Origin: Terriglobales bacterium
GTDB lineage: Bacteria; Acidobacteriota; Terriglobia; Terriglobales; Acidobacteriaceae
Length of the DNA stretch: 64,000 nt
Assembly: GCA_035504195.1 (NCBI GenBank)
Contig: DATJSG010000016.1
Coordinates: 284,828-348,827 of the forward strand
Direction: 5' to 3'
Made by a program: the position numbers and the translations under genes. Every line of letters starts with the position of its first letter. The stretch's first letter is position 1. Below the pieces are notes generated by a model that saw only the letters and a program-made list of their open reading frames with translations, did not search any database and was not told the DNA's origin. Positions 8,545 through 56,528 of this stretch are shown here, one piece after another.

Positions 8545-9546
8545 ATGCCCGGCAAGCGCGCCTTCGAAGCCCAAGTCGCCGCCCTGGACGACCTTCGCCA
8601 AGGCACGGCCGAAGCGCGCGCCAATTCGCTGCGCAAAGCCCTCGGACATCGCAATAATTTCATCGTGGCCAAAGCCGCCGACCTGATTCGCGAATTCATT
8701 CAGGAACCAGCCATAGCCAATCTTGAGCCCGACCTGCTGACGGCTTTCGGCCGCTTCTTCGACGATCCGGTGAAAAACGACCCGCAATGCTGGGCCAAAA
8801 ACGCCATCAGCCGCACACTAGCCGCCCTGGAACTTCAGGATGAAACCGTCTTTCTCCGCGGGATGCGCCACATCCAACTGGAGCCGGTCTGGGGAGGTCA
8901 GTCTGACACCGCCGGCACTCTACGCGCAACCTGCGTCCTCGCGCTCGTCCAGTGCCGCAGCCTGACAGAGCGGGATCTGCTGGCGCATCTGGTCGAAATG
9001 CTGGCTGACAAAGACAAGACCGTGCGAGTCGAGGTGGTTCGGGCCATCGAACAGGTTGGCTCAACCTCGGCGAGCCTGCTTCTCCGGCTCCGAGCCGTTC
9101 TTGGCTCAGCCGGAGCAGGCGCCGACGAACCGGAAGTCCTCGGCGCCTGTTACAGCGGAATCCTGCGCATCGAAGGCGCGGCTGCGATTCCGTGGGTTCG
9201 CCGATTTCTCGAAGCCGCCGACGACAACGCCGCCGAAGCAGCCCTGGCCATTGCGGGAACTCATTCCCCCGAAGCCCTCGACGTCTTGCGGAAGACTTTC
9301 CTGAAGGCTCACGATCCCTGGTGGCGCTCAGTCTTGCTCTCTGCCATCGCACTCACCCGTCAGGACACTGCGATCGAGTTTCTCCTCGAACTCGTCGGCA
9401 AAGAATCGCTCGAGGCCAAGGCCGCAATCGAGGCCGTCCTCCGCTCCGTGCCCTCAAAAGAGGTAATCCAACGTCTGGAGAAGCTGGTCGAAGGCAATCC
9501 ACGCCTGAAGCGAATCGTCGCCGCGCAACGAAAGGGATCATCGTAA
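8545..9546 (+). CDS. HEAT/ARM-repeat protein
   Basis: Met23 of ORF 8479..9546. The protein is all-helical with repeated A/L-rich roughly 30-40 aa units (e.g. DKDKTVRVEVVRAIEQVG). Confidence 0.55.
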   Translation: MPGKRAFEAQVAALDDLRQGTAEARANSLRKALGHRNNFIVAKAADLIREFIQEPAIANLEPDLLTAFGRFFDDPVKNDPQCWAKNAISRTLAALELQDETVFLRGMRHIQLEPVWGGQSDTAGTLRATCVLALVQCRSLTERDLLAHLVEMLADKDKTVRVEVVRAIEQVGSTSASLLLRLRAVLGSAGAGADEPEVLGACYSGILRIEGAAAIPWVRRFLEAADDNAAEAALAIAGTHSPEALDVLRKTFLKAHDPWWRSVLLSAIALTRQDTAIEFLLELVGKESLEAKAAIEAVLRSVPSKEVIQRLEKLVEGNPRLKRIVAAQRKGSS

Positions 9547-11025: not shown

Positions 11026-12216
11026 ATGCCCCGGTCCAGTAAGTCAGGTAACCCTTTAAGTGCTGCCCCGGCAGGTTCCGGCTACGCCATGCCCGCCGAG
11101 TGGGAGCCCCACGCCGCCACCTGGCTCGCCTGGCCGCACAACCACGACGACTGGCCGGGAAAATTCGAGCCCATCCCGTGGGTCTACGCCGAAATCATCC
11201 GCAACCTCGCCCGGCACGAACGCGTCGACCTGATCGTGAACAACGCCCGCGCCCAAACCCAGGCCCGCAAGTTGCTGAAGCTCGCCAACGCGCTCACGCC
11301 CAACGTCCACTTCCATCGCTGGCCCACGAACCGCGTCTGGCTCCGCGACTCCGGCTGCATCTTCTTGAAACGGGAAGGGCACGACTTTAGTCGTGCCGAT
11401 CAGGACCACAAGAAAGTTGGGGCTTCAGCCCCTGGGGGAACCGTCGCTCTCAAGTTCCGTTTCAACGCCTGGGCGAAATATTCCAACTGGCGACTCGACG
11501 ACAAGATCGGCAGCCTGATGGCGCACACCAAAACCCCCACTTCTCGCGCCCAGAACGCGCGAGAAATGGGGCACCCGCATTCTCACTTGCACGAAATTCA
11601 CCCCGTCTCCGCCGGCAAACACATCGTGCTCGAAGGCGGCTCCATCGACGTCAACGGCGCGGGCACCATCCTCACCACCGAGGAATGCCTGCTCAGCAAA
11701 ATCCAGCAGCGCAATCCGCACATGACCCGCGTCCACTACGAAAAAGCGTTCGCCGATTATCTCGGCGCACCCAACGTCATCTGGCTCGGACGCGGCATCG
11801 TCGGCGACGACACTCACGGCCACGTCGACGACCTCACCCGCTTCGTCTCCGCCGACGCCGTCGTGACCATGGTCGAGCCCAACTCCCGCGACGCCAACCA
11901 TGCCCCCTTGCTCGCAAATTTGCGCCGCCTGCAAGCCGCACGCGATCAAGCCGGCAGAGCACTCAACATCGTCGAACTCCCCATGCCCGGTCCTGTCGTC
12001 TTCGAAGGCCGCCGCCTCCCCGCCAGCTACGCCAATTTCTACATCGCCAATAAAGTCGTGCTGGTCCCGGTCTTCAACGATGCCAACGATCGCATCGTTC
12101 TCAACACTTTGGCGGGCGTGTTCCGCACGCGGCAGGTCGTTCCCATTTATGCGGGAGATTTGGTCTGGGGCCTCGGGACTCTGCATTGCATGACGCAACA
12201 ACAACCAGCAGAATAG
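11026..12216 (+). CDS. aguA: agmatine deiminase
   Basis: MPAEWEPHAATWLAWPH, WLRDSG, LEGGSIDVNGAGTILTTEECLL and the C-terminal GTLHCMTQQQP are agmatine deiminase motifs. It contains two in-frame repeat-derived segments (see the repeat features at 11372 and 11534). Confidence 0.85.
   Translation: MPRSSKSGNPLSAAPAGSGYAMPAEWEPHAATWLAWPHNHDDWPGKFEPIPWVYAEIIRNLARHERVDLIVNNARAQTQARKLLKLANALTPNVHFHRWPTNRVWLRDSGCIFLKREGHDFSRADQDHKKVGASAPGGTVALKFRFNAWAKYSNWRLDDKIGSLMAHTKTPTSRAQNAREMGHPHSHLHEIHPVSAGKHIVLEGGSIDVNGAGTILTTEECLLSKIQQRNPHMTRVHYEKAFADYLGAPNVIWLGRGIVGDDTHGHVDDLTRFVSADAVVTMVEPNSRDANHAPLLANLRRLQAARDQAGRALNIVELPMPGPVVFEGRRLPASYANFYIANKVVLVPVFNDANDRIVLNTLAGVFRTRQVVPIYAGDLVWGLGTLHCMTQQQPAE
11372..11440. 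repeat. REP-like palindromic element embedded in the aguA CDS
   Basis: The hairpin GGCACGAC-ttta-GTCGTGCC and GGGGCTtcAGCCCC are present. The 17-mer GAAGGGCACGACTTTAG is identical to intergenic 1431-1447. The segment encodes EGHDFSRADQDHKKVGASAPGG. Confidence 0.6.
11534..11576. repeat. hairpin repeat (CCCCACTTCTC...GAGAAATGGGGCACCC family) embedded in the aguA CDS
   Basis: The sequence is CCCCACTTCTCGCGC-ccagaac-GCGCGAGAAATGGGGCACCC. The 17-mer GAGAAATGGGGCACCCG recurs at 56452-56468. Related hairpins lie at 33512-33545 and 49113-49156. Confidence 0.65.
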
Positions 12217-12540
12217 CCGTCAGTCGTCGCCGCACTGTTCGCGACTCACCCTCTTCTGTCATCCTCAGGCAGCGGAGTCCCCGGCGAAGCCGAGGACTCC
12301 CAAACGAAGCGCCTCTGCACTTGGCCTCCCCACCTGTCTACTTTCGTGGTCTTGACGGGCCCACCGCTTTCAGCTAATTCTATGAGCTTAACCTTAGTGC
12401 ATTGACAGTCGCGCCAGGCTCCTAACTCCTTGCGGCTCAAGATTTTGACTCCTAAGTTCTTTAGATCATGGAATTTGGCGGGAATTTCCCGCTAAGCTGG
12501 TGATTCTACAGATTCGGGGGGGAGGGGGAGGGGGTACCCA

Positions 12541-12560
12541 CATAAGCGCTAACTTAAGGA
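12541..12560 (+). repeat. left terminal inverted repeat
   Basis: CATAAGCGCTAACTTAAGGA; its exact reverse complement is at 24734-24753. Confidence 0.85.
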
Positions 12561-12593
12561 GCAGGTTTTACGGCACCGACCTATGCTTGATGA

Positions 12594-13147
12594 ATGCGTA
12601 CCTCTGAAGAAGACTGGAATGTACTCGCATCCTTGCTTCCCGCAGGATGGCAGCAAATGGCGTGGCAGTCGGGTGCGCTGGAGCGATTGCGTCGGTTTTC
12701 ATCGCTCGACGTGCTGTTGCGTACTCTGATGCTTCATGTGGCAAGGGGTTACTCCTTGCGAGAGACGGTACTTCGCGCCAAACTGGCGGATTGGACGGAC
12801 ATTTCGGACGTGGCCTTGCTCAAGCGTTTTCGCCATAGCGAGGAATGGTTGCGTCTCTTTTGTATCGAATTGCTTCGGGAAACCGTCGCGTACCAGCTCG
12901 AAGAAGATATCACTCGGACGATCCGGATTGCACTATCGTCAGAGAGCCAGGCAAGACGGGGAGCCAATGGAGAATTCTGTATAGCATCAGACTACCGAGT
13001 TTCGTGTGTGATTTTTTCGAGGTGACCGCCACGATTGGCGAAGGCAGCGGAGAGTCACTGAACCGTCTGCCCGTGGGTCCGCGCGAATTTATTCTTGCGG
13101 ATGCCGGCATAGCACATCAAAAAGGTCTTTTCGGTCATTCGACATAA
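12594..13147 (+). pseudogene. IS4-family-like transposase, N-terminal fragment with frameshift
   Basis: ORF 12594..13025 (DWNVLASLLPAGWQQMAWQSGALERLRRFSSLDVLLRTLMLHVARGYSLRETV...ISDVALLKRFRHSEEWL) resembles an IS4 N-terminal domain. Homology-like sequence continues in another frame (12845..13147: TIVREPGKTGSQWRILYSIRLPSFVCDFFEVTATIGEGSGESLNRLPVGPREFILADAGIA). It then stops about where the GH3 gene ends. Confidence 0.6.
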
Positions 13148-14754
13148 TGACCGTTCAGCTGGCTTGACCAGCCATCGAGCGAACTGAGACCCGCCGGCTT
13201 GATATCGCCCAGCCGCTTTCCCATATCCTGGAGCCGCTGGCAGTATGACCGATAAGCGTCATCCGAGACGCGGAACAGTCGCGGAGGGCACAATTGGCCG
13301 AGCCGCCGGCAATAGGCGTAGTGCGGATTCGCCGAGAGAAGGCCATCCAGTTTGGCACACATTTCCTCGGTAGCGTCAGCGTTGATGTAAAGCGTGTAAC
13401 GCGATTCTTTCGTATCCACGTCGGGCGCAAGCATGGCGAAAGATGGCCGAGTCTGCGCTTCATGAAATAGTTTCATCAAGACCGACGCCACAAATCCGTC
13501 GGATAATTTTTCTCCGACGTAGTCCGAGAGTTGCGCGGACTTGCCGACGAAACGAATAGATGGAGTTCGCCCCAGCATTCCGCCAACCACCACTCGATCA
13601 TCCAGGCGATAACGCCACAATCCCCCGCCGGTTGTGAGAATGACGTTGTACTCGTGATCTTGTTGGAGGTCTGATGAACAGCGTACCAGTCCGGCAGCAT
13701 CTTCAAATTCCAAATAGTGAGATCGAATGGCGAGCGGATGCTGGCCTTGAAACGGTATAGAAACGATACCCTCAGTTGCGATGAGCCCCTTGGGTTGGAC
13801 TACGACCGAGCCCAACGACTGCGCGAGTTCGGCGGCGGCACCAGCGGCGTGCCCGTCGGTCCAACAGCTCAGGATTCTGAGTTTGGGCCACACCTGATCA
13901 ATCTTCAGAGGACCACTTATCCGCAATTCTTCAGAACGGCGAGGGTCGGAACGAAACCGGATTTCTGCACGCGCTGCCGGGGGAAGGCGTTTCGCCACAG
14001 CACATGTCCCGGTGGCTATCTCTGCTAGGAGTTGAGTCCAGTGATCGACGATTGTTTGCAGCAGCAGCGAAAAGAAGGAGGGATGCCACACTGAGACGAG
14101 ACTCAGGTCCCTTCGTCGAAGCAAAAGCAATGCCGTGATGTAGCGCCAATCCTCCGTGGACGAAATGTGTTTAAGCTCAGACGGCACGGCCATGCTCGCA
14201 TCGATCAGCCGTTTATGCCACCTCCCGAGATATGCAGCGTCCTCATCAAACCCAACCGGTATCGACGAGCGCTCAACAAACTGAAACGGGTCCGCAATGG
14301 CAGGGGAAATAGACCAATACGCTACGCCCAGCACCGCCTTAGGATGCATACGATAAAGGTCAAAAATCCAGGGACCGATCGCCTGGTTGAGCTCCGAATG
14401 CATCGAGGCAGTATAGGGAATGAGTTTGCGCGCGGCCGTTGAGCCACTGGAAGGCACCAATCGCCTCACCGGCTCATCGGTCAGCACTCGAGTTTCCCCC
14501 TGTCGGATTCTCTCAATCCACGGCCGCAGATCATCGTAGTTACGAATGGGAACGCGACTGGCAAATTCCGCAGGGGTACATTCCTCCGACAATCCGTGCT
14601 CTTGGCCAAAGGCAGTGCGTGCGTTCTTTCTGAGGAACGAGCGAAGCACCTGCTCCTGAGCAGCAGCCGGATCCTGCAGAGCGGTGGCGAAGGCAGCATA
14701 GGAACGGCTGCTGGCAAGCCACCATAACGAGTTTGCGAGAGCAGCCTTCACCAT
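13135..14754 (-). CDS. GH3-family acyl-adenylate-forming amido synthetase-like protein
   Basis: Start at Met24 (MVKAALANSLWW). RNYDDLRPWIERI and VPSSGSTAARKLIPYT (the SSG(T/S)T..K.IP adenylation motif) are typical of bacterial GH3 proteins. Its start overlaps the upstream stop (ATGGTGA). Confidence 0.7.
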   Translation of the reverse strand: MVKAALANSLWWLASSRSYAAFATALQDPAAAQEQVLRSFLRKNARTAFGQEHGLSEECTPAEFASRVPIRNYDDLRPWIERIRQGETRVLTDEPVRRLVPSSGSTAARKLIPYTASMHSELNQAIGPWIFDLYRMHPKAVLGVAYWSISPAIADPFQFVERSSIPVGFDEDAAYLGRWHKRLIDASMAVPSELKHISSTEDWRYITALLLLRRRDLSLVSVWHPSFFSLLLQTIVDHWTQLLAEIATGTCAVAKRLPPAARAEIRFRSDPRRSEELRISGPLKIDQVWPKLRILSCWTDGHAAGAAAELAQSLGSVVVQPKGLIATEGIVSIPFQGQHPLAIRSHYLEFEDAAGLVRCSSDLQQDHEYNVILTTGGGLWRYRLDDRVVVGGMLGRTPSIRFVGKSAQLSDYVGEKLSDGFVASVLMKLFHEAQTRPSFAMLAPDVDTKESRYTLYINADATEEMCAKLDGLLSANPHYAYCRRLGQLCPPRLFRVSDDAYRSYCQRLQDMGKRLGDIKPAGLSSLDGWSSQLNGHYVE

Positions 14755-15485
14755 GGTGCTAACCCAGCCGCCATGCGGCGGCCAGCTGGCGTCAGGTTGT
14801 GCGGCGAGAGTTCGGTGAGACACACCAACTCATCACCTCGCTCGTGAGCCGGATTACGGGACAGAAAGAACTTGACGTGAGAGTCTCTATGGCGGCCCGC
14901 GGGGACCTCGGCAAGCGGACCGCGCAACCTTTGTGGATTTTGGAAATGGACCACCCCGGTCCTCGCATCATATGCATGGCCGAATCTTTCGGCGGCTAAC
15001 AGGTCGGTCAAACGCTTCCAGTATGGCGGTGTTTGCGAATCAAAGCGTGGGAAGAATTCTCGCCAGAACAGCGGTAAGAAACGATAGGTACGAAAACCGG
15101 AGGTGATCAAGAGCCATAGATAAAGACCACGCCGGTAACGATTGCGCAACTCGGCTACTGCTGCGATCCAGGTTCGGGGAAGGGTCGACGCGTTCCAACC
15201 TTCTGAAGCAACGATTGTGTCTCCCGAATAGACCACGCTGTATATTTCGCCACCGACTGATGTCTCGTACACGAGAAGCGTTGAGAACCCGACGAAGCAA
15301 CCGCCCTTCTCCAGCAAGATGACCCAATTTTTTTCCGAAAGATCGCGCTGGAATTGGGCCGGGGTCACACCTTCAAAGTGTTGGGACAGCAAGCCGTACA
15401 TCTGACTCAGATCGTGCTCCTGAAGGAGTCGGCGCGCAACAAGACGGCCAGTACAGGCCGCTTCAATCTCCGCTGCGGAGCTCAA
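14748..15485 (-). CDS. GNAT-fold acyltransferase-like protein (function unknown)
   Basis: 245-aa ORF with a TTG start that overlaps the upstream stop (TTGA). The central segment WVILLEKGGCFVGFSTLLVY...YSGDTIVASEGW looks like a GNAT core. The family assignment is from memory only. Confidence 0.5.
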   Translation of the reverse strand: MSSAAEIEAACTGRLVARRLLQEHDLSQMYGLLSQHFEGVTPAQFQRDLSEKNWVILLEKGGCFVGFSTLLVYETSVGGEIYSVVYSGDTIVASEGWNASTLPRTWIAAVAELRNRYRRGLYLWLLITSGFRTYRFLPLFWREFFPRFDSQTPPYWKRLTDLLAAERFGHAYDARTGVVHFQNPQRLRGPLAEVPAGRHRDSHVKFFLSRNPAHERGDELVCLTELSPHNLTPAGRRMAAGLAPW

Positions 15486-16651
15486 AGGGTTGCCACCTCC
15501 GGGAAAAACAACCGTTCATCGAGCTTGGGAGTAAAAGCGGCGCCGTCCTCCCAATACACAGCGTAAATGCGGCTCACATATTCGCGCACACGAAACACCC
15601 TCCGGAGATGCGCCAGACGAGGGTCGCGCGAATCAAAGCCAATCACCACGTAGTCGGCGGACCGGGCGCTAGGGGAGGTCCGCACGAGATTGATCAGACA
15701 TTCCGTGAGTTCCGGCTGATCAGACCGCGCGGCTAAATGGGAAACATAAACGTGCGAAAGCGCGCTGCCAATCTCCGGCAGGAGAGGCGTGCCGAGGAAC
15801 CTAGCCGCAACATTGCAGAATGGCCTCGCCCATTTCAAAACCCCTGAATATCCGCGTACCACGCTCTGCTTCATTGCTCTCTGGTCCCAGATGGCAGCAC
15901 ATCCCACCTGTGTCTCAAGACTCGAATACAAAGTACAGAAATCATCGGCACAAATTTCGCTTGCCGACCAAACCGGCGCAAATTGGTATTCACGATTGTT
16001 GCGGTTCAGGATTTCCAGGATATCGAGGCTGCTGCTGTGCGAACCGGGCAGCGCTCGAAGATCTCCCTTTCGAAGCAACCGCCGGGTACGGGATGCAGGA
16101 TGATTGAATTTCCAGAAATGACTCCGGCGGATGATCAGTGTCACCAAGTCGCCGAGAAACCTGTAGGTCGGCATTCCCGTGAGTCCTTTCTCCAGGAATC
16201 TGAGCGCTGCCTGATTGCCAGCAACGATGCTGCTCAGGTAGATCAGAGGCCCGCCCTGGTCATGGATATTCCTAAAGAGGTCATAGCCGCGGCGAAGGAT
16301 TTCAGCGCGGCCTTTGCACGACCGATCCAATCGCAGCCCGCTGAGATAACCAACCCGCATCGGCTCGCCATTAATAAATCTTTGACGAGCTGAGATGCTG
16401 CCAGTGGCCACAACGCGTCCGTTTTCAATGGCAACAATGGTTTGGTGTTCCGATCCTTCGAATTTGGCGGCAGCGAAAAACTCGGGCTCGCGCTCCAGGG
16501 ATACGCTGATGGAGCCCGGTATTGGATTCTCGCGGAGTAGGCGCCGGAGCGCCGCATCGTGGTCCGCGGTAGCCAACTCAAAATGCAGGCCATTATTAAG
16601 GCGTTTATCATTGCCAACGATTAATTGGCCTGAAGCAACGGACCCGTCCAC
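15482..16651 (-). CDS. two-lobed GNAT-like protein (function unknown)
   Basis: 389-aa ORF. FELATADHDAALRRLLRENPIPGSISVSLEREPEFF and VGYLSGLRLD resemble an N-acyltransferase fold. The start is uncertain: ATG 16651 overlaps the upstream gene by 31 nt, and an in-frame TTG lies further downstream. Confidence 0.5.
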   Translation of the reverse strand: MDGSVASGQLIVGNDKRLNNGLHFELATADHDAALRRLLRENPIPGSISVSLEREPEFFAAAKFEGSEHQTIVAIENGRVVATGSISARQRFINGEPMRVGYLSGLRLDRSCKGRAEILRRGYDLFRNIHDQGGPLIYLSSIVAGNQAALRFLEKGLTGMPTYRFLGDLVTLIIRRSHFWKFNHPASRTRRLLRKGDLRALPGSHSSSLDILEILNRNNREYQFAPVWSASEICADDFCTLYSSLETQVGCAAIWDQRAMKQSVVRGYSGVLKWARPFCNVAARFLGTPLLPEIGSALSHVYVSHLAARSDQPELTECLINLVRTSPSARSADYVVIGFDSRDPRLAHLRRVFRVREYVSRIYAVYWEDGAAFTPKLDERLFFPEVATL

Positions 16652-17979
16652 GATTCGTCCCCCAATGGATATCCATCACGCAAGCCTACATCGCCTCGGT
16701 GCATTGCATTGATGAGAAAGAAATTGCGCCACATGAAGCCATCGGCGCGATTGATGGGATCGAAACCTCTGCGAACGATGCTGCGCCACGAGTAAAACTT
16801 TCGCCGCGCCTCCAGACAACAACGTTGCAGGTCCACCGGAGTCATTCCCGCCGGACGAAAAGGAATGTCATTGTATCGATAACGATCATTGAGCCACCAG
16901 GCATCATAGATCAGTCGCCCGCCGGCCTGGAGGCGCTTGTACAACGGCGTGCCAGGAAATGGTGTGAGGTGGTTAAAAGCAGCAATGTACATCGAATTCG
17001 ACTGAGCAAACTTCACTGTTTGTTGAAAACTTTCCGGAGTGTCGCGATCATACCCAAAAATGAACGTTCCATAGAGACGAATGCAATACTTTCGCAAGTT
17101 TTCGAGCGCTTTCGCAAAGCCGCCGCGCATTAAGTTGAAGGATTTATTCATGTCCTTCAAGTTGTCGGAATCGAGACTTTCAAACCCAATCAACACTCCC
17201 ATACAGCCGCTGCGTACCAGCAACTCCAGGAATTCCTCGTCGTGAGCCGCATTTATGCTCGCCTGGCTTACCCAGCGGACTTTCGCCGGAATCAACTCGC
17301 GAAAGAATTCCTTCGCCTGAGCGAGATTTGATGTGATGTTGTCATCTACGAAAAAGAAGAGCTTTCTGTGTTTCTTCACGGCGTTGACTTCCGCAACAAT
17401 ATCGTCCAAGGGCCGGCGGGTTTGAGTGGCGCCGAAAACCGTCTGCACCGCGCAGAACTCGCATCGAAAGTGACAGCCCCGGCCTGCTTCAACAAGGCCG
17501 ATCGGTAGATATCGCTTTCCGCGAAAGATAGAGCGATCGGGTTTGACTTTCGCCAATAATGGACGACCTTCTGCCCTGTATCGTTCTCGCAATCGCGCTG
17601 ACCGAGCGTCGTCAATCACTTGCTCCCATAGACTCTCCGCCTCGCCCACAACGACGGCCTCCGCGTACTTCGCGACCTCATCGGGCACAAGCGAGGCATG
17701 AAAGCCTCCCATCACCACCGGTATCTTGCGGCGACGGTATTCACTGGCGATCTGATAGGCACGCTTCGCGGTATAGGTTTCGACGCTGATCGCGACAAGG
17801 TCGGTCGGTTCATCAAACGGAATGCGCTCCATACGATCGTCGTAAAACCTCACTTCCACACCCTTGGGCGTAAGGCCGGCAATGGTCGCCGCCGGCAACG
17901 ACTCCATCTGCCAAGTCCGGACATAACTGCTGTCGCCATTCCGGCGCCCGATGCAGGGATGGACAATTGTCAGTCTCAT
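16621..17979 (-). CDS. B12-binding-domain radical SAM protein (class B, DUF4070-type C-terminus)
   Basis: Start at Met28 (MRLTIVHP) overlapping the upstream stop (ATGA). It has an N-terminal Rossmann-like B12-binding region (DLVAISVETYTAKRAYQIASEYRRRKIPVVMGGFHAS). The CxxxCxxC motif is in GRGCHFRCEFCAV. Confidence 0.8.
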   Translation of the reverse strand: MRLTIVHPCIGRRNGDSSYVRTWQMESLPAATIAGLTPKGVEVRFYDDRMERIPFDEPTDLVAISVETYTAKRAYQIASEYRRRKIPVVMGGFHASLVPDEVAKYAEAVVVGEAESLWEQVIDDARSARLRERYRAEGRPLLAKVKPDRSIFRGKRYLPIGLVEAGRGCHFRCEFCAVQTVFGATQTRRPLDDIVAEVNAVKKHRKLFFFVDDNITSNLAQAKEFFRELIPAKVRWVSQASINAAHDEEFLELLVRSGCMGVLIGFESLDSDNLKDMNKSFNLMRGGFAKALENLRKYCIRLYGTFIFGYDRDTPESFQQTVKFAQSNSMYIAAFNHLTPFPGTPLYKRLQAGGRLIYDAWWLNDRYRYNDIPFRPAGMTPVDLQRCCLEARRKFYSWRSIVRRGFDPINRADGFMWRNFFLINAMHRGDVGLRDGYPLGDESWTGPLLQAN

Positions 17980-19385
17980 TGCGCTTCGGGAAGGTTCAAA
18001 GAGAGGGACCGAGGAACTGCTTCGGCGCTCGTCATTTGATCGGAGCGGCCGATGATCCAATCGCAGTTATAGAACTTGCTCAGGTGGTTCGAGTAGAACC
18101 GATAGCCGAGGTTGGTGGCCAACCGTACGCCCCAGGGGGCCGGGGAATGCGGCAAGCGGGCCAGGATCGAGGAAACGCTGTAAGCGTGTTTCCAGGCAAT
18201 TTCAGTGCCTCGTTCCAGCTCTCGAATGCTCATCCGCTTGGGTTGAAAGACGACGTGTTGGCCATCGTAGAGTTCCCAGTTGCGGGTTAGGATTCGGCCT
18301 TCACTCTCGAGTCGGCTGTAAAGAGCGGTTCCAGGAAACGGCGTCACAATTGCGAACCGAGGAAGATCGATTTTCGCGGCCACGGCAAACTTCGCGGTTT
18401 TCATGAAGACGTCGGCATCATCGCCGTCCAATCCGAAAACGAAGCATCCCTGCAACGCGATGCCATGATCGTGAAGATTTTCAACTATGCGAACAAAGTG
18501 CTCAGGAGAATTGAACGCTTTTTTGCTTGCACGCAAGTTCTCAACTGAAACGGACTCCAGCCCCATGAGCAATCCGCGACAGCCGCTTCTCGCGGCCATG
18601 TCCAACAACTGCGGATCTTCCGCGAGCAGTACGGTTGCCAACCCATACCACTGCACACGCATGGGGATCAGCGCCTTGAATAAGCGAATTGCGTAGCCGC
18701 GATCGGCGATGAGATTGAGGTCTACAAAAATCAGTTTTCGAGCGCCATGCTGCCGGATGTCCTCGACTACGTCTTCGACAGGTTTTTGTAATGGCTTGCG
18801 TCCCCAGGCCGCCGGCACAACGCAGAAGTCACAGTTATGCACGCAACCACGCGTAGCCTCAAAAACACTATTCGTCAGAAAACGTCTTGAGGGGAGGAGA
18901 TCGCGACGCGCAAACGGCCGCCTCGCAAGGTCGAGATCGGGAGCCTGGTCGTATCTTCGCTGCATCCGGCCAGCCGCAAAGTCGCGAAGCAATTGTGGCC
19001 AGGTATCTTCGGCATAGCCAACGATGATCGAATCTGCGTGTGGCTGCGCGTCATCGGGAACGAGGGTGACGTGAGGTCCACCTAGAACTGTAGCAATCCC
19101 GCGTGATCTGAAATGTCTTGCCAGGTCATACGCGCGCGGGGCAGTGCCTGTAATTACAGTCAATCCGACAAGGTCGGCATCAAGGGATTCTGGAACTTCC
19201 TGGATGCCCTCATCGATGAGCGTGACCTCAGCGTTCATTTGAGGAGGGATCAGGGAGGCAAGAGTAGTCAGCGTCAACGGTTGGTAACGCAGAGACTTAC
19301 GGAAAATTCCTCCACGATGGCGGTAAAGCGGCCCTTTCGGAGAAACGAGAGCCAGTCGCAAGGGTCGTCCATCACGAGGCAACAC
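17976..19385 (-). CDS. B12-binding-domain radical SAM protein (paralog of 16621..17979)
   Basis: GTG start preceded by GGAGGTGG. The B12-binding-like region is DLVGLTVITGTAPRAYDLARHFRSRGIATVLGGPHVT. The CxxxCxxC motif is in TRGCVHNCDFCVV. The overall layout is collinear with the downstream paralog. Confidence 0.8.
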   Translation of the reverse strand: MLPRDGRPLRLALVSPKGPLYRHRGGIFRKSLRYQPLTLTTLASLIPPQMNAEVTLIDEGIQEVPESLDADLVGLTVITGTAPRAYDLARHFRSRGIATVLGGPHVTLVPDDAQPHADSIIVGYAEDTWPQLLRDFAAGRMQRRYDQAPDLDLARRPFARRDLLPSRRFLTNSVFEATRGCVHNCDFCVVPAAWGRKPLQKPVEDVVEDIRQHGARKLIFVDLNLIADRGYAIRLFKALIPMRVQWYGLATVLLAEDPQLLDMAARSGCRGLLMGLESVSVENLRASKKAFNSPEHFVRIVENLHDHGIALQGCFVFGLDGDDADVFMKTAKFAVAAKIDLPRFAIVTPFPGTALYSRLESEGRILTRNWELYDGQHVVFQPKRMSIRELERGTEIAWKHAYSVSSILARLPHSPAPWGVRLATNLGYRFYSNHLSKFYNCDWIIGRSDQMTSAEAVPRSLSLNLPEAQ

Positions 19386-19536
19386 GCGATACCACCTCCG
19401 GCCAACCGATCAGCCACTGGAAAAACTGCTTGAAATCCTTGGCGGAGATATTATAGTTATCCTCCACTTTGTCAAGTAATGCTGCCTCAGACAGTCGAAA
19501 ACAAGATTGAACGGAGCGACGAGTAGCAAATTTGTT

Positions 19537-20466
19537 ATGGCGAATGCGCCTCCACGTCTGTCGATCGTGCAGATTGCGGACCACGCCCATCGTTGCCGTA
19601 CCGACCGATCTCCTCTCGAAACTGACCTTCCCATCGATTTCACAAAACCTTTCGTCTGTCCCAGTTTGACAGCCCTCTATTACACCCCATTTTGGAGCAA
19701 ATTGGAGCCCACGGATCAGTTACGGTACACGCAACTATCCGCTCTGTCGTTCAACGAGTTGATCGCATGGTTTGAAAGAGGGTTTAGCTCAACGTTGCGG
19801 GCACTTATGCGAAGCGATCGGTTGCCGGAGGAGTTGAAATCACTCTTGCCAGGTTTTCTCGAGGACGAGTGCCGGCATCAGGAGATTTGGTGGACTCTCA
19901 ACCGTCGTGTCGATCCCGTGCGATATTCACGCAATATTGCGTCGATCTCTAAGATAGCTCCGGCGGGGCGCGCTTTGATGAGTTGGCTGGCCAGCCGTCC
20001 GCTGGATTATCCCGTTGTCATTTGGCTCATGCTTGTTCTGGAAGAACATGGCAACGAGATTGCTCGCCGTTGCGCAGCAAGACGACCCGACGAGATCGAA
20101 CCCCACTTCGCAGCGGCCTATCTCGCGCACGTTCGCGATGAGATCCGCCATGTTCAGATCGACTGGCATTTGCTGGATTCGCTGTGGCCGTCGCTCCGGG
20201 GATGGCGTCGGCGCATGAACATCGAGCTCTTCCGGTTGGTGATCGCACGCCTGTTGTTTAAGACAGAGCATGCTTCGATGTCGGTTGTGGAAGAACTTGT
20301 CCGGGAAAGGCCCCGACTTCGGCTATTGCTGCCGCAACTTCGCACACAGCTGCGCGAAGTCAGTCAGGACCGGGAATTTAGAAGCATGATGTTGTCCGCC
20401 CGATCGACTCCTATTGTTTTCCATCTTTTGGATTTGTTTCCCGAGCTCGAGAGCGTAATCGCGTGA
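19537..20466 (+). CDS. AurF-like ferritin-fold diiron oxygenase
   Basis: Carboxylate/His motifs are spaced as in diiron proteins: LEDECRHQE, LEEHGNE, VRDEIRHVQ. The start is ATG 19537, or alternatively TTG 19507. Confidence 0.55.
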   Translation: MANAPPRLSIVQIADHAHRCRTDRSPLETDLPIDFTKPFVCPSLTALYYTPFWSKLEPTDQLRYTQLSALSFNELIAWFERGFSSTLRALMRSDRLPEELKSLLPGFLEDECRHQEIWWTLNRRVDPVRYSRNIASISKIAPAGRALMSWLASRPLDYPVVIWLMLVLEEHGNEIARRCAARRPDEIEPHFAAAYLAHVRDEIRHVQIDWHLLDSLWPSLRGWRRRMNIELFRLVIARLLFKTEHASMSVVEELVRERPRLRLLLPQLRTQLREVSQDREFRSMMLSARSTPIVFHLLDLFPELESVIA

Positions 20467-21383
20467 CCAGAGTCCACGAAATCCCTAACGCAGCCAATGC
20501 GGTTGTCGTGGCGGTGCAACTCTCTGTCGTAGCCCTCTGCATCGCGGAGTGCAGAACGGCCAACGGCTGGTGGTGCATTGTGATCGGAGCCATGTTCGTA
20601 TTGACCTTGAATTCGGTTTATTTTGCAATTCATGAGGCGGAGCATGGCCTCTTGTTCTCCAACCGCAGATGTAACGAACTAGCGGGGACGATTCTCTCTG
20701 TCCTGCTTCCCGCCCCATACACTTTCATCCGCAATGTCCATCTCGCACACCATGTGCATAATCGTTCGGACGACGAAGTCTTTGATCTGTACTTCGAAGA
20801 AGATCCGGCCTGGTGGAAGAAACTGCAGTTTTTCGGCATTCTCACTGGAGGCTTTTGGCTGAGCCTGGTTGTCGGCAATATTGCGCTCGCTGTGGTACCC
20901 ATGCGATGGCTCTCGAAAGCCGTGGAGATCGACCGTCCTTCTGCGGCGGTGGTGCGCTATGTCAATCGGCGAAATCAGTGGTGGATCCGGGCAGAGGCCT
21001 GGATGGTCCTTCTTTTTCATTCGACAGTTTGCTGGCTGCTAGGGCCGCGGGCAATCAGGTACGGTCTGATGTACCTTGTCTTCGGTATGAGCTGGTCAAC
21101 GCTGCAGTATGTTCATCATTATGGGACTTGCCGGGACGTGCTGCGAGGCGCGAAGAATTTGCGTTACGGGTGGCCGCTTGATGTGCTGTGGCTCAATCAT
21201 GGCTGGCACTTGACTCACCATCTTCATCCCACGGTGTCATGGCTGCATTTGCGCCGAGTCGCGAGAGAGGATGAGCCTCGCGTGGAATCACTGGGCAGCG
21301 CTTATCTGAAAATGTGGCGAGGTCCACTGCTGACCAGCGAACGTGTGCAGAATCGCTATGACGGATACGTTGTACAACAGTAA
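20463..21383 (+). CDS. membrane fatty-acid desaturase family protein
   Basis: The histidine boxes are HEAEHG, HLAHHVH and HLTHHLH, and there are several TM helices. The GTG start overlaps the upstream stop (GTGA). Confidence 0.75.
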   Translation: MTRVHEIPNAANAVVVAVQLSVVALCIAECRTANGWWCIVIGAMFVLTLNSVYFAIHEAEHGLLFSNRRCNELAGTILSVLLPAPYTFIRNVHLAHHVHNRSDDEVFDLYFEEDPAWWKKLQFFGILTGGFWLSLVVGNIALAVVPMRWLSKAVEIDRPSAAVVRYVNRRNQWWIRAEAWMVLLFHSTVCWLLGPRAIRYGLMYLVFGMSWSTLQYVHHYGTCRDVLRGAKNLRYGWPLDVLWLNHGWHLTHHLHPTVSWLHLRRVAREDEPRVESLGSAYLKMWRGPLLTSERVQNRYDGYVVQQ

Positions 21384-22068
21384 CGCGGTTGCGATTGACT
21401 GGCCGGTCCACCGTCGACTGATCATGGTCCTGCTCGGCTATATTCCAATGCTTTTGTCAGGCCTCGTCGTATCTTGTATCGTACTTCCCGCGCGACGGTG
21501 GGGCCTGGTCAAAGGAGTGGCATGCGGCGTAATTGTCTTCTATGTTTTTCCGCCGCTGGCTTTTCGCGTGGCGTCCCTTTTATTCAAACCTCAGCCGGGA
21601 CGGCATTCGGTCGCATCCGCCGATTTCCTGCGTTGGTGGTTGTCTGCGCAATGGCAAGTGATTTTTAATCGCTTGCCAATGTTCGAGGAACTGCTTCGAA
21701 TCGTTCCCGGACTCTACTCAGCCTGGCTTCGTCTGTGGGGGGCGAAGATCGGCTCACTCGTGTATTGGAGTCCCGGAGTTGCGGTACTGGATCGAGCCTT
21801 CGTATGCATCGGCAGCCGCGTGGTGTTTGGCGCGGGCGTGCGACTCAATCCTCATGTGATTGTTCCAGGTAAGAAGCGGGAAGCTCAACTGTGGCTCGCT
21901 CCCGTGACCTTGGGCGATGACGCCCTGATCGGAGGTTACAGTCTGATTACCGCCGGCTGTACCGTTCCGGCCGGAGTTTCTCTGCCAGCCGGCAAATACG
22001 TTCGACCGTTTTCCACCTGGCAAGATAACGAATCGGCCCAAAGCCGATACGAGGGCGATTCGGATTGA
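21358..22068 (+). CDS. membrane-anchored hexapeptide-repeat (left-handed beta-helix) acyltransferase
   Basis: It has N-terminal TM helices followed by imperfect hexapeptide repeats (IGSRVVFGAGVRLNPHVIV ... VTLGDDALIGGYSLITAGCTVPAGVSL). The start is uncertain (21343, 21358 or 21424). The first two options overlap the desaturase 3' end. Confidence 0.55.
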   Translation: MTDTLYNSNAVAIDWPVHRRLIMVLLGYIPMLLSGLVVSCIVLPARRWGLVKGVACGVIVFYVFPPLAFRVASLLFKPQPGRHSVASADFLRWWLSAQWQVIFNRLPMFEELLRIVPGLYSAWLRLWGAKIGSLVYWSPGVAVLDRAFVCIGSRVVFGAGVRLNPHVIVPGKKREAQLWLAPVTLGDDALIGGYSLITAGCTVPAGVSLPAGKYVRPFSTWQDNESAQSRYEGDSD

Positions 22069-22751
22069 GCCGATCTTTACATTCCGCGTTACTGAGCCGA
22101 CTTCGATCGAACGTGGGATTGAAAATTGTTATGTTGCTCACCTTGCCCGTTGCCGTGACAGTTGGCTATCTTGCGATCCAGCGCGCTGTTGTTTTTCCAG
22201 ACGGTAGAGTTCCTCTGACGTGGTTCGACCACGTTATTCCTTTTCAGCCGCGTTGGGTCTGGGTCTATCTCTCGATGTATTTACTCAATCCCATTGGGCC
22301 TCTGTTCACCCGGTCGCGCGAGGACTTATTCCGGTATGCCCGCGGCATTCTGTTCTTTTTCGTTTGTGGATTCGTGTGCTTTGTATTCTTTCCAGTCCCG
22401 GGACCGCGGCCGCCTCGCGCGGACGATTTTTGGCTGTATCAGAGGCTTATTCTCGTTGATCGCCCCTACAATTCCTTTCCCTCCTTGCATGCCGCGTGTG
22501 CAGTTTATGCGGTTCTCTTCGCGGCCTACGCATCGTGCGATACATCGCGTCCCCATCTGAGAATTTCGCTGCTTTCTCTGGCATGGCTGTGGGTTGGCCT
22601 GATCTTGTATTCCACCGTAGCTACTCGTCAGCATTTCGCGATCGACTTGCCCGCCGGAATGTTCCTGGGCTGGCTTGCGCAATCGCTTTTTGTCAGTCGG
22701 AGCTCGCGTGCATCGAGCAAGACAGCTTTCGTCGACAGAGAGGCTGCGTGA
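22065..22751 (+). CDS. PAP2-superfamily membrane phosphatase/phosphotransferase
   Basis: It is polytopic. SFPSLHAACAV and TRQHFAIDLPAG match PAP2 C2/C3-type motifs, as in PAP2_C / IPC- or SM-synthase-like proteins. The TTG start overlaps the upstream stop (TTGA); an alternative ATG is at 22131. Confidence 0.6.
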   Translation: MSRSLHSALLSRLRSNVGLKIVMLLTLPVAVTVGYLAIQRAVVFPDGRVPLTWFDHVIPFQPRWVWVYLSMYLLNPIGPLFTRSREDLFRYARGILFFFVCGFVCFVFFPVPGPRPPRADDFWLYQRLILVDRPYNSFPSLHAACAVYAVLFAAYASCDTSRPHLRISLLSLAWLWVGLILYSTVATRQHFAIDLPAGMFLGWLAQSLFVSRSSRASSKTAFVDREAA

Positions 22752-23797
22752 TTCAGGAATCCCAATGCGCCATGCTCGCGCCTCCCCGGGCGGAAGCCTT
22801 CCCCGACTCACCTATGGGCTGGTACATACTTGGCCAATCGCACGAAATAACGAGTCGACCGAAAGCTATGGAGTTATTCGGCGAACGGCTTGTTTGCTTC
22901 CGTCTGTCCTCAGGAAGAGCGGTAACGATGGATGCGCGCTGTTGGCATCTAGGCGCCGACCTTTCCAAAGGCGTGGTTGCGGGTGATCAGATCGTTTGCC
23001 CGTTTCATGGTTGGCGATATGGAGCATCCGGAGATTGCGAGTTCATACCAAATCAGGAAGGCATCCCCGCCGCCCGCCAGCGGACTTATCAGACAGAAGA
23101 GCATGCGGGCTACGTGTTTGTCTTTCCATGCGATGTCTGCGACTACCCACCGCCATTCTTCGCAAGTATCGACCGGGCCGAACTCATCGCGGCTCCGTCG
23201 TTTGAATTTTTCATCGAGTGTCCTTGGTGGTTGGTAGGCACGAATGGCTTCGATCTTCAGCACTTCACCGGCTTACATCATCGCCGCCTCGTGGGCTTGC
23301 CAGCGATTGAATCACCCCATCCGGCAGCGCGGAGAATCGTGACGACCTTTGAGATTTGCGGAAGCAATTGGCAAGATCGACTCACACGAAGGGTTGCAGG
23401 TTCCCGAGTGACCATGGACGTGACCATTTGGTCTGGGACACTGGCGTTCGTCATGGCGCACTTTCACGATTCGGCGACTGCGGATCCCCGCTCCACGCGA
23501 ACCACCAGTTACGGCATGACCGAGATCCGGGCCCTTTCATCTCCGCGGGAACAGAGATCGCACGTGCGAGTAACGATCTTCCGCAAAAGGCGGCCCGGGT
23601 TAGCCATGCTTGACTGGCTGGACGTGCGAATCAAGCGATATTTCATTCATGCCTTCCTGAAGCCTGATACACTCCTGCTGACCCGGGCCCGGTACAACCG
23701 TGACCACTTGATCCATGCTGACCGGCAGATGATCGACTATCTTTGCTGGCTGGCGGCTGTTTCCAGCAAACGTTCTAATGCGAAGGAGCCGACATGA
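22748..23797 (+). CDS. Rieske [2Fe-2S] non-heme-iron oxygenase
   Basis: The GTG start overlaps the upstream stop (GTGA). The Rieske motif is CWHLGADL...CPFHGWRY. The mononuclear iron motif is NGFDLQHFTGLHH (D-x2-H-x4-H). Confidence 0.75.
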   Translation: MIQESQCAMLAPPRAEAFPDSPMGWYILGQSHEITSRPKAMELFGERLVCFRLSSGRAVTMDARCWHLGADLSKGVVAGDQIVCPFHGWRYGASGDCEFIPNQEGIPAARQRTYQTEEHAGYVFVFPCDVCDYPPPFFASIDRAELIAAPSFEFFIECPWWLVGTNGFDLQHFTGLHHRRLVGLPAIESPHPAARRIVTTFEICGSNWQDRLTRRVAGSRVTMDVTIWSGTLAFVMAHFHDSATADPRSTRTTSYGMTEIRALSSPREQRSHVRVTIFRKRRPGLAMLDWLDVRIKRYFIHAFLKPDTLLLTRARYNRDHLIHADRQMIDYLCWLAAVSSKRSNAKEPT

Positions 23798-24438
23798 TCT
23801 CGAGATCTGCAGTCGTTGTGATCACGCTGTTTGCTCTGGCAGTTGCTGTCATTCCTGCGGCGGCGGTTGATAACCCCTCAACTCCCCAGACCGTCGATGA
23901 GTCTAGCGCTGGGTTGGATCATTTGCGCGCTGCGCTGAAGGACGCATACGCGAAAGGCGACATCGACGCCATGATGCGTTACCTTCACCCCGACGTGGTC
24001 GTTGTTTTTCCGGATGGCAGCATCTTGAAAGGCCCTCAGGCTTTTCGCAACTACTATCAACAAATGATGACTGCTCCGAACCACCGCGTAGTCAGCTATT
24101 CTGCCGATCCCCAAGTCGAATCCCGGACCGTGCACAATGATGTCGGTCTTTCCTATGGCTATATGAACGATCGATACGTTCTCAATGACGGCAGGAGTTT
24201 TGCTCTGAATAGTCGGTTCACGGTGACCGTTTTCAAGTCCCCGGACGGACCAAAAGACACAGATGGCTGGATGATCCGTAGTTTTCATTCGTCTGCCGAT
24301 GCCTTCGATAATCCCATCATCACGATGGTTGCTCAAGGCGTCTTTTGGAGGGCGGGAATTGGTGGTGCGGTTGTGGGTACAGTGCTTGGTTTGATTGTTG
24401 GCATCTTCGCTCGTCGCCGGAAAACATCGACCACTTAA
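23794..24438 (+). CDS. NTF2/SnoaL-like (DUF4440-type) protein with signal peptide and C-terminal TM anchor
   Basis: The ATG overlaps the upstream stop (ATGA). The signal-like N-terminus is MISRSAVVVITLFALAVAVIPAAA. DIDAMMRYLHPDVVVVFPDG is SnoaL-like. The C-terminal hydrophobic tail is GIGGAVVGTVLGLIVGIFARRRK. Confidence 0.5.
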   Translation: MISRSAVVVITLFALAVAVIPAAAVDNPSTPQTVDESSAGLDHLRAALKDAYAKGDIDAMMRYLHPDVVVVFPDGSILKGPQAFRNYYQQMMTAPNHRVVSYSADPQVESRTVHNDVGLSYGYMNDRYVLNDGRSFALNSRFTVTVFKSPDGPKDTDGWMIRSFHSSADAFDNPIITMVAQGVFWRAGIGGAVVGTVLGLIVGIFARRRKTSTT

Positions 24439-24468
24439 CGAAAAGCCTTCGCAAAAATTAGGACGACG

Positions 24469-24585
24469 ATGAAACGGATCGCTATTCTCAGCGATCCAGA
24501 ACCGGCTCAGATTCTTGCCTTGTGGACACATTCGCAAAAGAGCATGGTGTCCATTCTCGGCTCAGCACGGAAGAATGCCGACTAG
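24469..24585 (+). pseudogene. possible C-terminal remnant of the IS4-like transposase
   Basis: The short ORF MKRIAILSDPEPAQILALWTHS... weakly resembles the FKRLKS..L...DP..A..WL segment near IS4 transposase C-termini. It lies just inside the right IR. The similarity is judged from memory only. Confidence 0.3.
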
Positions 24586-24733
24586 ACAACTAGTTCGCTA
24601 GAAGATCGCACCGGAAACTGGCTGTCGCTATACTTAACCCGTACACCGTTAGACAACTCACACAATGCTCTAAACGGCGTTCCACGCGAGAAAGTCAGAC
24701 TCCAAACCGCAGTAAAGCATGCTTTCATCTACG

Positions 24734-24753
24734 TCCTTAAGTTAGCGCTTATG
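24734..24753 (-). repeat. right terminal inverted repeat
   Basis: TCCTTAAGTTAGCGCTTATG is the exact reverse complement of 12541-12560. Confidence 0.85.
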
Positions 24754-24870
24754 GGGGGGACCGACCGCAAGCAAAAATTCCCAGACGGCGCCCGGACGGA
24801 AGAAGGCGCAGGGCAAACCGGCGCCGCGGCCTGGAGTGAAAGAAGGGGCTAAAGGCCAAGCGCCAACAGC

Positions 24871-49110: not shown

Positions 49111-49257
49111 TCCGGGTGCCGCATTTCTCGCGCGCCTTCTGCGCGAGAGGTGCGGTTTTTCTCGGTCCCACGATTTGGATTCAAAATAGAAGATACTCTG
49201 ACTCTACACAACGCCAGCCTGGCACTCAACCAACCCAGGTAACGGAAAGGTTCCTCT

Positions 49258-56186: not shown

Positions 56187-56429
56187 CGGCTTGGCCTGGA
56201 ATTCCAAGGTCTGGAACTTCAAGGTTTCCAAAGTGGCAAGGTTCCGGCCTTGAGACATTGAAACCTGCGAACCTTGCAACCTTATCTTCCGGGATATTTC
56301 TGACGACCGTCTCTGGCGAGACGGAACAGCATTGAGGAACTTTCCATCCGTGCGTTTTTCAAGCGCAGCGAACTTTTCCAGCCTCATCAACAGGGTGACG
56401 TGTGCCTTTCCTCTGGGGAGGTTCAAAAT

Positions 56430-56466
56430 CCCCACTTCTCCCAAAATCGGGGAGAAATGGGGCACC
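56430..56466. repeat. hairpin repeat of the CCCCACTTCTC...GAGAAATGGGGCACCC family
   Basis: The sequence is CCCCACTTCTCCC-aaaatc-GGGGAGAAATGGGGCACCC, in the rpsO-pnp spacer. Confidence 0.6.
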
Positions 56467-56528
56467 CGGTTCGCCTTGTTTACGGCTCATGGCACGGCTC
56501 ACGCTCATAGCTCCCAAAGGAATGAATT

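Follow-up and report, generated by a model that had tools for sequence, protein, structure and literature searches.

Tn5 and Tn10 are classic examples of the composite transposons that insertion sequences (ISs) of the IS4 family form, in which two complete IS copies enclose the cargo. In the Bacillus cereus group, the IS4-family element IS231 has also given rise to mobile insertion cassettes (MIC231), which are small (~1–3 kb), contain no transposase remnants and depend for movement on a transposase supplied in trans. To our knowledge, transporter ISs (tISs) usually carry one to a few genes, and passenger-carrying ISs and IS-derived cassettes in general mostly hold one to a few genes and come mainly from well-studied pathogens and Firmicutes. 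In the ISfinder concept, tISs are IS derivatives with passenger genes within their terminal repeats (PMC9330008; PMC3129680). Here we analyze a stretch of 64,000 nucleotides (the window) from a Terriglobales bacterium of the Acidobacteriota (assembly GCA_035504195.1, contig DATJSG010000016.1, positions 284,828–348,827). A sequence-only reading of the window had singled out a 12.2-kb segment (12541–24753) with eleven genes between inverted repeats. We conclude, with a probability of roughly two in three, that this segment is a single IS4-family IS with passenger genes (a tIS or unit transposon) that has decayed to a non-autonomous element.

The segment begins with the 20-mer CATAAGCGCTAACTTAAGGA (left terminal inverted repeat, IRL, 12541–12560, plus strand) and ends with its exact reverse complement (right terminal inverted repeat, IRR, 24734–24753, minus strand). 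These were the only two matches to the 20-mer across the window, even at three mismatches, and none of 100 dinucleotide-preserving shuffles yielded any match, which bears out the exact inverted pair reported by the sequence-only reading. A repeat finder lengthened the arms outward to 24 nt at 96% identity. An imperfect extension into the C/G-rich bases outside had been anticipated, and it is present but weak; it reflects the G/C-rich target site and flanks, not the IS. The 11-mers that adjoin the repeats, GGGGGTACCCA on the left (12530–12540) and GGGGGGACCGA on the right (24754–24764), agree at nine of 11 positions and are candidates for a target-site duplication. Because the IS prefers certain targets, 2.5% of unrelated flank pairs also reach 9/11, and the match, we stress, is suggestive only. 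No intact IS copy is present within the window.

The IS behind the repeats was traced through related loci and contigs retrieved from public genomes, metagenome-assembled genomes (MAGs), and metagenomes, which are given L-numbers here. The exact 20-mer was found in at least 120 stretches of species-representative genomes, mostly of Acidobacteriota and also of Verrucomicrobiota, delta-proteobacterial/myxococcal MAGs, and further groups; it terminates more than 120 elements in public MAGs and is the conserved end of an IS with copies in many MAGs from soil and peat. Among the matches listed, two 20-mers face each other around a transposase gene, 1.32–1.39 kb apart, in nine loci, and other pairs lie 86–800 bp apart and have the look of miniature inverted-repeat transposable elements (MITEs). 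Complete IS copies (1.32–1.35 kb) are flanked by exact 11–12-bp direct repeats in L013, L021, L038, L071, L078, L082, and L083, and the duplicated targets are roughly palindromic (GGGC-N3-GCCC-like). Full-length relatives match DDE_Tnp_1 (PF01609, cut-off 23) with 52.5 bits (L119) and 63.8 bits (L021). The Y-(2)-R-(3)-E-(6)-K signature was read directly in L068 and L120 (LYRMRWQIELVFKRLK), in a part of the transposase that is deleted in the window. Because the 20-mer bounds complete copies with target duplications, a DDE_Tnp_1 domain, and the Y-2-R-3-E-6-K signature, the window repeats are, judged by sequence, the ends of an IS4-family IS. The short terminal repeats and ~9–13-bp target duplications that mark this family are present in the relatives; in the window, the repeats are exact and the 11-mers agree at 9/11.

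The left arm of the IS (12541–13108, plus strand) corresponds to IS positions 1 to ~575 and contains an N-terminal transposase pseudogene, which starts at ATG 12594 and ends just after the first catalytic-region motif, ADAG. Positions 12538–13108 are 81–84% identical at the nucleotide level to the IS copies L120, L068, L049, L119, L033, and L025, and the translated fragment is 29–34% identical to annotated IS4/IS421-family transposases (tblastn), which confirms the IS4-like N-terminal fragment noticed earlier inside the left repeat. Pfam and NCBIfam searches with the transposase fragment itself returned no match. Alignment to the intact L119 copy revealed a 7-bp deletion near 12930 that causes a frameshift. 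Homology to the IS stops abruptly at GCCGGC (13103–13108), just past the ...LADAG motif; ~740 bp of transposase coding sequence are missing, and the window retains the N-terminal third only. The hexamer occurs in the IS consensus (GCGGATGCCGGCTACTGC) as well as in the cargo-side spacer of a close relative, L121 (…AACAGCCGGCATAGCACATC), and the window reads IS, then GCCGGC, then spacer, so that IS position ~570 is joined to the spacer at a 6-bp microhomology. The remaining 26 bp of that spacer (13109–13134), common to L121 and partly to L147, adjoin the stop codon of the first cargo gene, which encodes a GH3-family protein. The window transposase is thus dead, by frameshift and by loss of its 3′ part across the GCCGGC microhomology.

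The right arm is shorter, comprising ~200 bp that end in IRR (24554–24753, plus strand). When the surroundings of the right repeat were compared with the at least 120 loci that hold the 20-mer, the match was limited to ~25–50 bp next to the repeat. However, a metagenome scan with an internal 23-mer of the right arm recovered two contigs, L136 and L137. In both, the C-terminal end of a transposase of the same sub-lineage joins directly to a ~200-bp homologue of 24554–24753 that includes a degenerate IRR. The identity is ~81%, measured over 24589–24755, and the alignment runs back to 24554. This homology identifies the right arm as the non-coding 3′ end of the IS, of the same lineage as the left arm. 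The weak C-terminal-like remnant described earlier at the right repeat is therefore IS-derived, as proposed, but it is non-coding rather than part of the transposase C-terminal coding sequence. The interval before it (24439–24553) is cargo-side spacer and not derived from the IS; alignment to L122, an 85% relative, stops at 24436, and IS homology starts at 24554.

L121 shows how the two arms are related. It is 96.5% identical to the window across the cluster at the nucleotide level, begins inside the right repeat, and has the 295 bp from the SnoaL-like gene, the last of the cargo, to the repeat in common with the window. Past the GH3 stop codon, ~225 bp of spacer are followed by the C-terminal end of a transposase in the same orientation as the window fragment. 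In L137, the IS is contiguous, with ...GGGATGCCGGGCTT running directly into TCTCGGCTCAG..., whereas in L121 the transposase end, ...GGGATGCCGTACTT, meets TGACAAG... on the left and ...GTCCAT meets TCTCGGCTCAG... on the right. The IS is therefore broken at a single point, the end of the transposase open reading frame (ORF), and IS sequence is neither duplicated nor lost. Because the interruption is at one point, without duplication or loss, the arrangement is explained by one IS carrying an insert and not by a pair of copies whose deletions happen to be reciprocal. What separates the window from L121 is the deletion between the GCCGGC of the IS and the GCCGGC of the spacer.

These comparisons bear directly on whether the segment is a composite transposon, in which two directly oriented IS copies flanked the cargo and the left one lost its 3′ end and IRR, the right one all but its last 200 bp. 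Tn5 and Tn10 offer precedent within the family and resemble the window in their IS4-family DDE chemistry, cargo between IS ends, and ~9–11-bp target duplications; the region is also rich in decaying ISs, with truncated or adjacent pieces in L141, L137, L049, and L106. We nevertheless regard a composite transposon as improbable. The IS pieces complement each other exactly: the contiguous IS in L136/L137 has one point at which the left piece stops and the right one resumes, and two independent deletions would need to share the same end nucleotide. The arrangement is, moreover, common to L121 and the window. Where Tn5 and Tn10 have two complete IS copies, and a composite transposon in general has two complete or once-complete ones, the window arms are complementary, non-overlapping parts of one IS. 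The suggestion of the sequence-only reading that the cargo sits inside an inactivated IS is upheld: the arms come from a single IS lineage, the cargo is placed precisely where the transposase ORF ends and the IS 3′ end begins, and the transposase is destroyed.

A single IS with passengers would have had the ancestral layout IRL, transposase, ~225-bp spacer, 11-gene cargo, ~115-bp spacer, ~200-bp IS 3′ end, and IRR. From IS4-family biology and the relatives, the DDE transposase would bind both 20-bp repeats and excise the whole unit. The unit would then insert into G/C-rich, roughly palindromic targets of the GGGC-N3-GCCC type and duplicate 11 bp. In the window lineage, a deletion of ~0.95 kb (its size estimated from relatives) between the GCCGGC hexamers has removed the catalytic/C-terminal part of the transposase together with most of the spacer. 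Because the element's own transposase is destroyed and both 20-bp ends are intact, further movement is conceivable and would need a transposase in trans, in keeping with the mobilization in trans raised by the sequence-only reading.

The element resembles a tIS in having one transposase gene, one pair of repeats, and passengers between the transposase gene and one end. It differs in its load, an 11-gene, ~11.3-kb biosynthetic cluster, and in that the window copy has lost its transposase; among the relatives, no intact copy with an exact duplication was seen. MIC231 is similar in that IS4-family repeats bracket passengers and there is no functional transposase. The window shows the MIC-like combination of exact repeats, a frameshifted and truncated transposase, and eleven intact passenger genes, and departs from MIC231 in its transposase pseudogene, far larger cargo, and Acidobacteriota host. 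The mobile element is of a known kind in an unusual form, distinguished by its very large cargo, its host phylum, and evidence of relocation at the population level.

On the left of the element lies aguA (PAD_porph), preceded by genes for a CN-hydrolase and a HEAT-repeat protein; on the right are genes for a NuoI-like 2x[4Fe-4S] protein and tadA. Domain matches bear out the earlier description of these flanks as housekeeping genes. With a GC content of 0.551 (rest of the window, 0.589), the island is the lowest-GC 12.2-kb stretch in the window. Its GC content at third codon positions is 0.60, compared to 0.74 in the flanking genes, and its tetranucleotide deviation is the largest in the window. 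In L130, the order HEAT–CN_hydrolase–aguA–[one ORF]–nuoI is kept without the cluster, although L130 is too divergent (74–87%) to stand in for a cleanly empty site. Other Acidobacteriota also have the 11-gene block as a unit, among unrelated neighbors. The sequence-only reading had taken the segment to be AT-richer than its flanks and an accessory island, probably horizontally acquired; the composition confirms the former, and the deviant composition, the block with unrelated neighbors elsewhere, and the synteny of L130 without it agree with the latter.

The cluster and the IS 3′ end also occur together at other sites, in contigs of soil and peat Acidobacteria with 93–97% nucleotide identity to the window. 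In L138–L140, L143, and L146, homology to the window extends to the final base of IRR and no further; the flank beyond reads CCGAACTGCCC... and leads into a tRNA-Glu remnant, rhaM, and sugar-acid genes. In L147, homology likewise ends at the repeat, and the flank, TGGGCTTCGCC, is a typical target. The exact IRR boundary is thus found beside three unrelated flanks, that of the window (nuoI), that of L138–L140/L143/L146, and that of L147 (other genes), which supports transposase cleavage. A fourth context is provided by L141 and L142, in which the right repeat is cut after TCCTT and is followed by another IS fragment and an amino-acid permease gene. After TCCTT (L141 10945–11060 and its equivalent in L142), what looks like another IS copy of the same family starts with its 5′ leader and first codons (MDENWRVVSSLFP), a sign that ISs have inserted into one another and decayed around the element.

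The exact boundaries also weigh on the proposal that the repeats form no unit and that coincidence placed a truncated IS to the left, and an unrelated solo end or MITE remnant to the right, of an independent cluster. The 20-mer is very abundant, including short MITE-like derivatives and solo ends, the flanking 11-mers are non-identical (9/11), and L143 and L147 carry IRR but no IS at the other side of the cluster. Against this, both arms are of the same IS sub-lineage in the correct relative orientation, the position of the cargo corresponds to a single break in the IS, the homology of relatives at different sites breaks off after the final IRR base, and the compositional boundary falls at the repeats. 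In our estimate, coincidence has a low probability.

Several observations weigh against a single IS with passengers. The flanking 11-mers of the window differ at two of 11 positions, while all 40 bases of the inverted repeats are unchanged. The reference copies used for the right arm, L136 and L137, are 5′-truncated and only ~81% identical, and their IRR is degenerate. In the closest IS relatives (L068, L049, L119, L033, L120, and L109), a search of the 2–5 kb downstream of the transposase gene for a canonical IRR found none. No copy with the order IRL–transposase–cargo–IRR and an exact 11-bp duplication was seen, and the L121 contig ends inside the IS. L143 and L147 are without the IS on the GH3 side. 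Furthermore, the left junctions lie +3 (L143), +22 (L147), and +26–32 bp (window) after the GH3 stop codon, an unexplained clustering that is too tight for random deletions. On visual inspection, the ends of the inserted cargo yielded no convincing terminal repeats, whether inverted or direct, and the surroundings of the GH3 stop codon no convincing cryptic site of the IRL type. Finally, in L143 (a relative with 93.5% identity) and L144, the 3′ end of a tRNA-Glu(ttc) gene (L143 11644–11721; L144 10907–10984) lies 24 bp from the GH3 stop codon, and in L138 (~11520–11550) the 3′ end of this tRNA gene recurs ~600 bp beyond IRR as a direct copy that agrees at 26/28 positions. This arrangement looks like the signature of an att site, and the element may there lie in the remnant of a tRNA-targeting island; no integrase is present in this context in L143, L144, or L138.

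The tRNA-Glu copies speak for another mechanism, in which a tRNA-targeting integrative island or homologous or illegitimate recombination moved the cluster and the IS end is a passenger scar. A resolvase fragment beside the cluster in L122, the variable left boundaries, and the presence of the cluster without any IS sequence in distant relatives point the same way. At the window boundaries, there is no integrase, tRNA gene, or att-like repeat; the only tRNA gene, for tRNA-Ser, is 1.6 kb away (Rfam) and outside the element. An exact IRR boundary at three sites is predicted by transposase cleavage and not by recombination. We consider such a mechanism unlikely and retain the single IS with passenger genes as the preferred explanation.

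Some features of the wider IS family were recorded alongside. The closest relatives (L068, L049, L119, L033, L120, and L109) have a perfect left repeat and a transposase gene with no recognizable right repeat. Four of them (L068, L049, L033, and L119) have ~105–130 bp after the stop codon in common, beyond which each continues into different, ordinary genes. The closest relatives may be IS copies that were truncated, or they may carry cargo as well. Degenerate IRR-like motifs spotted by eye near these relatives were unconvincing and were dropped. Back-to-back IS ends, 1–11 bp apart, are seen in L106 (7117–7167), L049 (5216–5256), and L137 (~8820–8870, arranged IRR-GGACAGCGCCC-IRL-like), which suggests that the IS often inserts beside the end of an existing copy or into a duplicated target. 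G-rich runs of the GGGGGAGGGGG type occur just outside IS ends at 12500–12540 in the window and in the flanks of the unrelated loci L050, L063, and L104, and may be a preferred target context.

The cargo consists of eleven intact genes in two divergent operons, one of five genes on the minus strand and one of six on the plus strand. All have orthologue-like lengths and no internal stops, as the sequence-only reading had assumed, and its statement that no other mobility gene lies between the repeats also stands. The minus-strand operon ends with the gene for the GH3-family acyl-acid amido synthetase (539 aa, 13135–14754), whose N, M, and C domains score 160 (PF03321), 43.9 (PF23571), and 39.1 bits (PF23572), all over the cut-offs. 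Its matches in the PDB are plant GH3 amido synthetases, and it is identical to HTW57539.1 from a Terriglobales MAG. Next to it is a gene for a 245-aa GNAT-like protein (14748–15485; Acetyltransf_9, 26.2 bits, cut-off 25), which is always beside GH3 in orthologous clusters. The 389-aa protein that follows (15482–16651) is uncharacterized, with weak GNAT similarity in each half and no Pfam match over cut-off. It has 2622 representative homologues, 708 of them at E ≤ 1e-30, and no member of the family that was scanned gave a solid Pfam match; a homologue on a Citrobacter plasmid is annotated as an N-acetyltransferase. The operon is completed by two B12-binding radical S-adenosylmethionine (SAM) enzymes. 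The first (452 aa, 16621–17979) has Radical_SAM and B12-binding domains and resembles AprD4, CysS, and TsrM in the PDB; the second (469 aa, 17976–19385) has Radical_SAM, B12-binding, and DUF4070 domains. The nearest NCBIfam models for the pair are HpnJ, PhpK, BchE, and a lipid B12-radical-SAM model, all far under cut-off.

By the gene arrangement, the interval 19386–19536 is the divergent intergenic (promoter) region between the operons; no Rfam family was found in it. The plus-strand operon opens with an AurF-like di-iron oxygenase (309 aa, 19537–20466; AurF, 48.5 bits) and a membrane fatty-acid desaturase/hydroxylase family protein (306 aa, 20463–21383; FA_desaturase, 95.7 bits). A membrane-anchored, acyltransferase-like protein with a left-handed β-helix (236 aa, 21358–22068) matches Hexapep with 25.8 bits, just below the cut-off of 27, and, among NCBIfam models, weakly resembles the Pls/PosA terminal domain and O-acetyltransferases. 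Further downstream are a PAP2-superfamily phosphatase/phosphotransferase (228 aa, 22065–22751; PAP2_3 and PAP2) and a Rieske non-heme-iron oxygenase of ~349 aa (22748–23797), for which a GTG start was fixed from orthologues and the best PDB relatives are the KshA 3-ketosteroid-9-alpha-hydroxylase oxygenases. The last gene encodes a 214-aa SnoaL/NTF2-like protein (23794–24438; SnoaL_2, DUF4440, and SnoaL_3) with an N-terminal signal-like segment, a C-terminal hydrophobic tail, and 106 homologues at E ≤ 1e-40. Sequence and profile searches of the PDB with the 245-aa, 389-aa, and AurF-like proteins found nothing significant.

Taken together, these families suggest that the cargo is probably a conserved, widely distributed, uncharacterized biosynthetic cluster that makes or tailors an N-acyl-amino-acid-type or amide-linked envelope lipid. 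GH3 would adenylate a (fatty) acid and couple it to an amine or amino acid, and the GNAT-like and hexapeptide proteins would attach acyl groups. The B12-radical-SAM pair would methylate unactivated carbons or rearrange them; oxidation of the product would fall to the di-iron, membrane desaturase-type, and Rieske oxygenases, and PAP2 would act on a phosphate head group. B12-radical-SAM enzymes are established lipid-tail modifiers. A role for the radical SAM enzymes in branched glycerol dialkyl glycerol tetraethers or other membrane-spanning lipids was considered and set aside, as it found no support in NCBIfam, the PDB, or the literature. The cargo is not a recognized defense system: in a scan of ten of the eleven proteins (all but the SnoaL-like one), the PADLOC defense models gave only weak matches to PDC-M51A (a candidate model; 27–30 bits) from both radical SAM proteins and none from the other eight.

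The only biochemical precedent that we found for a bacterial GH3 enzyme is OlsH, which makes, in an ATP-dependent manner, N-acyl ornithine for ornithine lipids (PMC12493201). The OlsH/OlsI pathway of Singulisphaera acidiphila resembles the window in having GH3 in an operon with acyltransferase-type and lipid-modifying genes (PMC12493201). Several results, however, count against the proposed function, which was deduced from domain content at the family level. The window GH3 protein scores 36.6 bits against the OlsH NCBIfam equivalog model, with a cut-off of 620, and the match covers the N-terminal 85 residues only. Pfam found no OlsI-type α/β-hydrolase in the cluster, and an OlsG methyltransferase is also absent. 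In contrast to the OlsH/OlsI pathway, the cluster has two B12-radical-SAM enzymes, two GNAT-like proteins, three oxygenases, and PAP2. Single-sequence structure predictions for the 245-aa and 389-aa proteins were unusable, with mean confidence scores (pLDDT) of 39.5 and 36.8, respectively. We found no description of the gene cluster in the literature. The earlier expectation of an undescribed system thus stands for the cargo pathway but not for the mobile element, whose type (tIS/mobile insertion cassette) is known.

More distant relatives (85%, 72%, and 68% or 53% GH3 identity) have the eleven genes, in L131 as a rearranged variant, free of IS sequence and among wholly different neighbors. 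A related cluster is found on the IncF plasmid NZ_CP134684.1 of Citrobacter portucalensis, beside an alpha-2-macroglobulin operon. It encodes a small hypothetical protein, GH3, radical SAM proteins, an N-acetyltransferase (~340 aa), PAP2, and a desaturase. These form a core that it has in common with the window, and it too is on a mobile replicon. It differs in its GH3 identity (34%), its five radical SAM genes, and the absence of AurF, Rieske, and SnoaL proteins, and it is not IS-bounded as far as examined. The Citrobacter plasmid cluster gave no match in a collection of E. coli genomes. Alpha-2-macroglobulin genes lie beside the GH3/radical-SAM cluster in three unrelated contexts (the Citrobacter plasmid, L148, which is NZ_CP134684.1 42198–63631; and two acidobacterial contigs, L122 16593–21620 and L131 14135–18992). 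This adjacency may denote a functional link to envelope protection or be a coincidence.

Elsewhere in the window, a ~50-nt hairpin repeat with the core GAGAAATGGGGCACCCG occurs four times (11530–11581, 49109–49160, 53699–53743, and 56424–56468), and none of 100 shuffles reached four copies. The first copy is inside the aguA ORF (11026–12216) and is read in frame, as a ~12-residue insertion that is absent from the L130 orthologue. The aguA gene of L130 has a different insertion, of 24 residues and at another position, which matches window positions 48996–49049. The repeats resemble palindromic elements that insert in frame into genes.

In most treatments, ISs count as gene-free. The present IS, from a soil phylum that is abundant and little studied, appears to contain an entire pathway of many enzymes. 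The occurrence of the same unit at several chromosomal positions, in populations that are a few percent apart, would offer a concrete mechanism for the exchange of envelope remodeling functions among Acidobacteria. The conserved, unannotated cluster is a candidate for new lipid chemistry, and its 389-aa signature protein belongs to no Pfam family and counts more than 2,600 representative homologues. We put forward tentatively, and as a doubtful extension of these results, that an IS4-family lineage in soil and peat Acidobacteria is a dedicated vehicle for the 11-gene pathway, moving now or until recently. The product would be an undescribed class of modified N-acyl-amino-acid or other envelope lipid, made by core enzymes (GH3, a tandem-GNAT-like protein, B12-radical-SAM enzymes, PAP2, and a desaturase) that are found in many phyla and on an enterobacterial IncF plasmid, and other members of the IS lineage that lack a nearby right end may carry cargo there.

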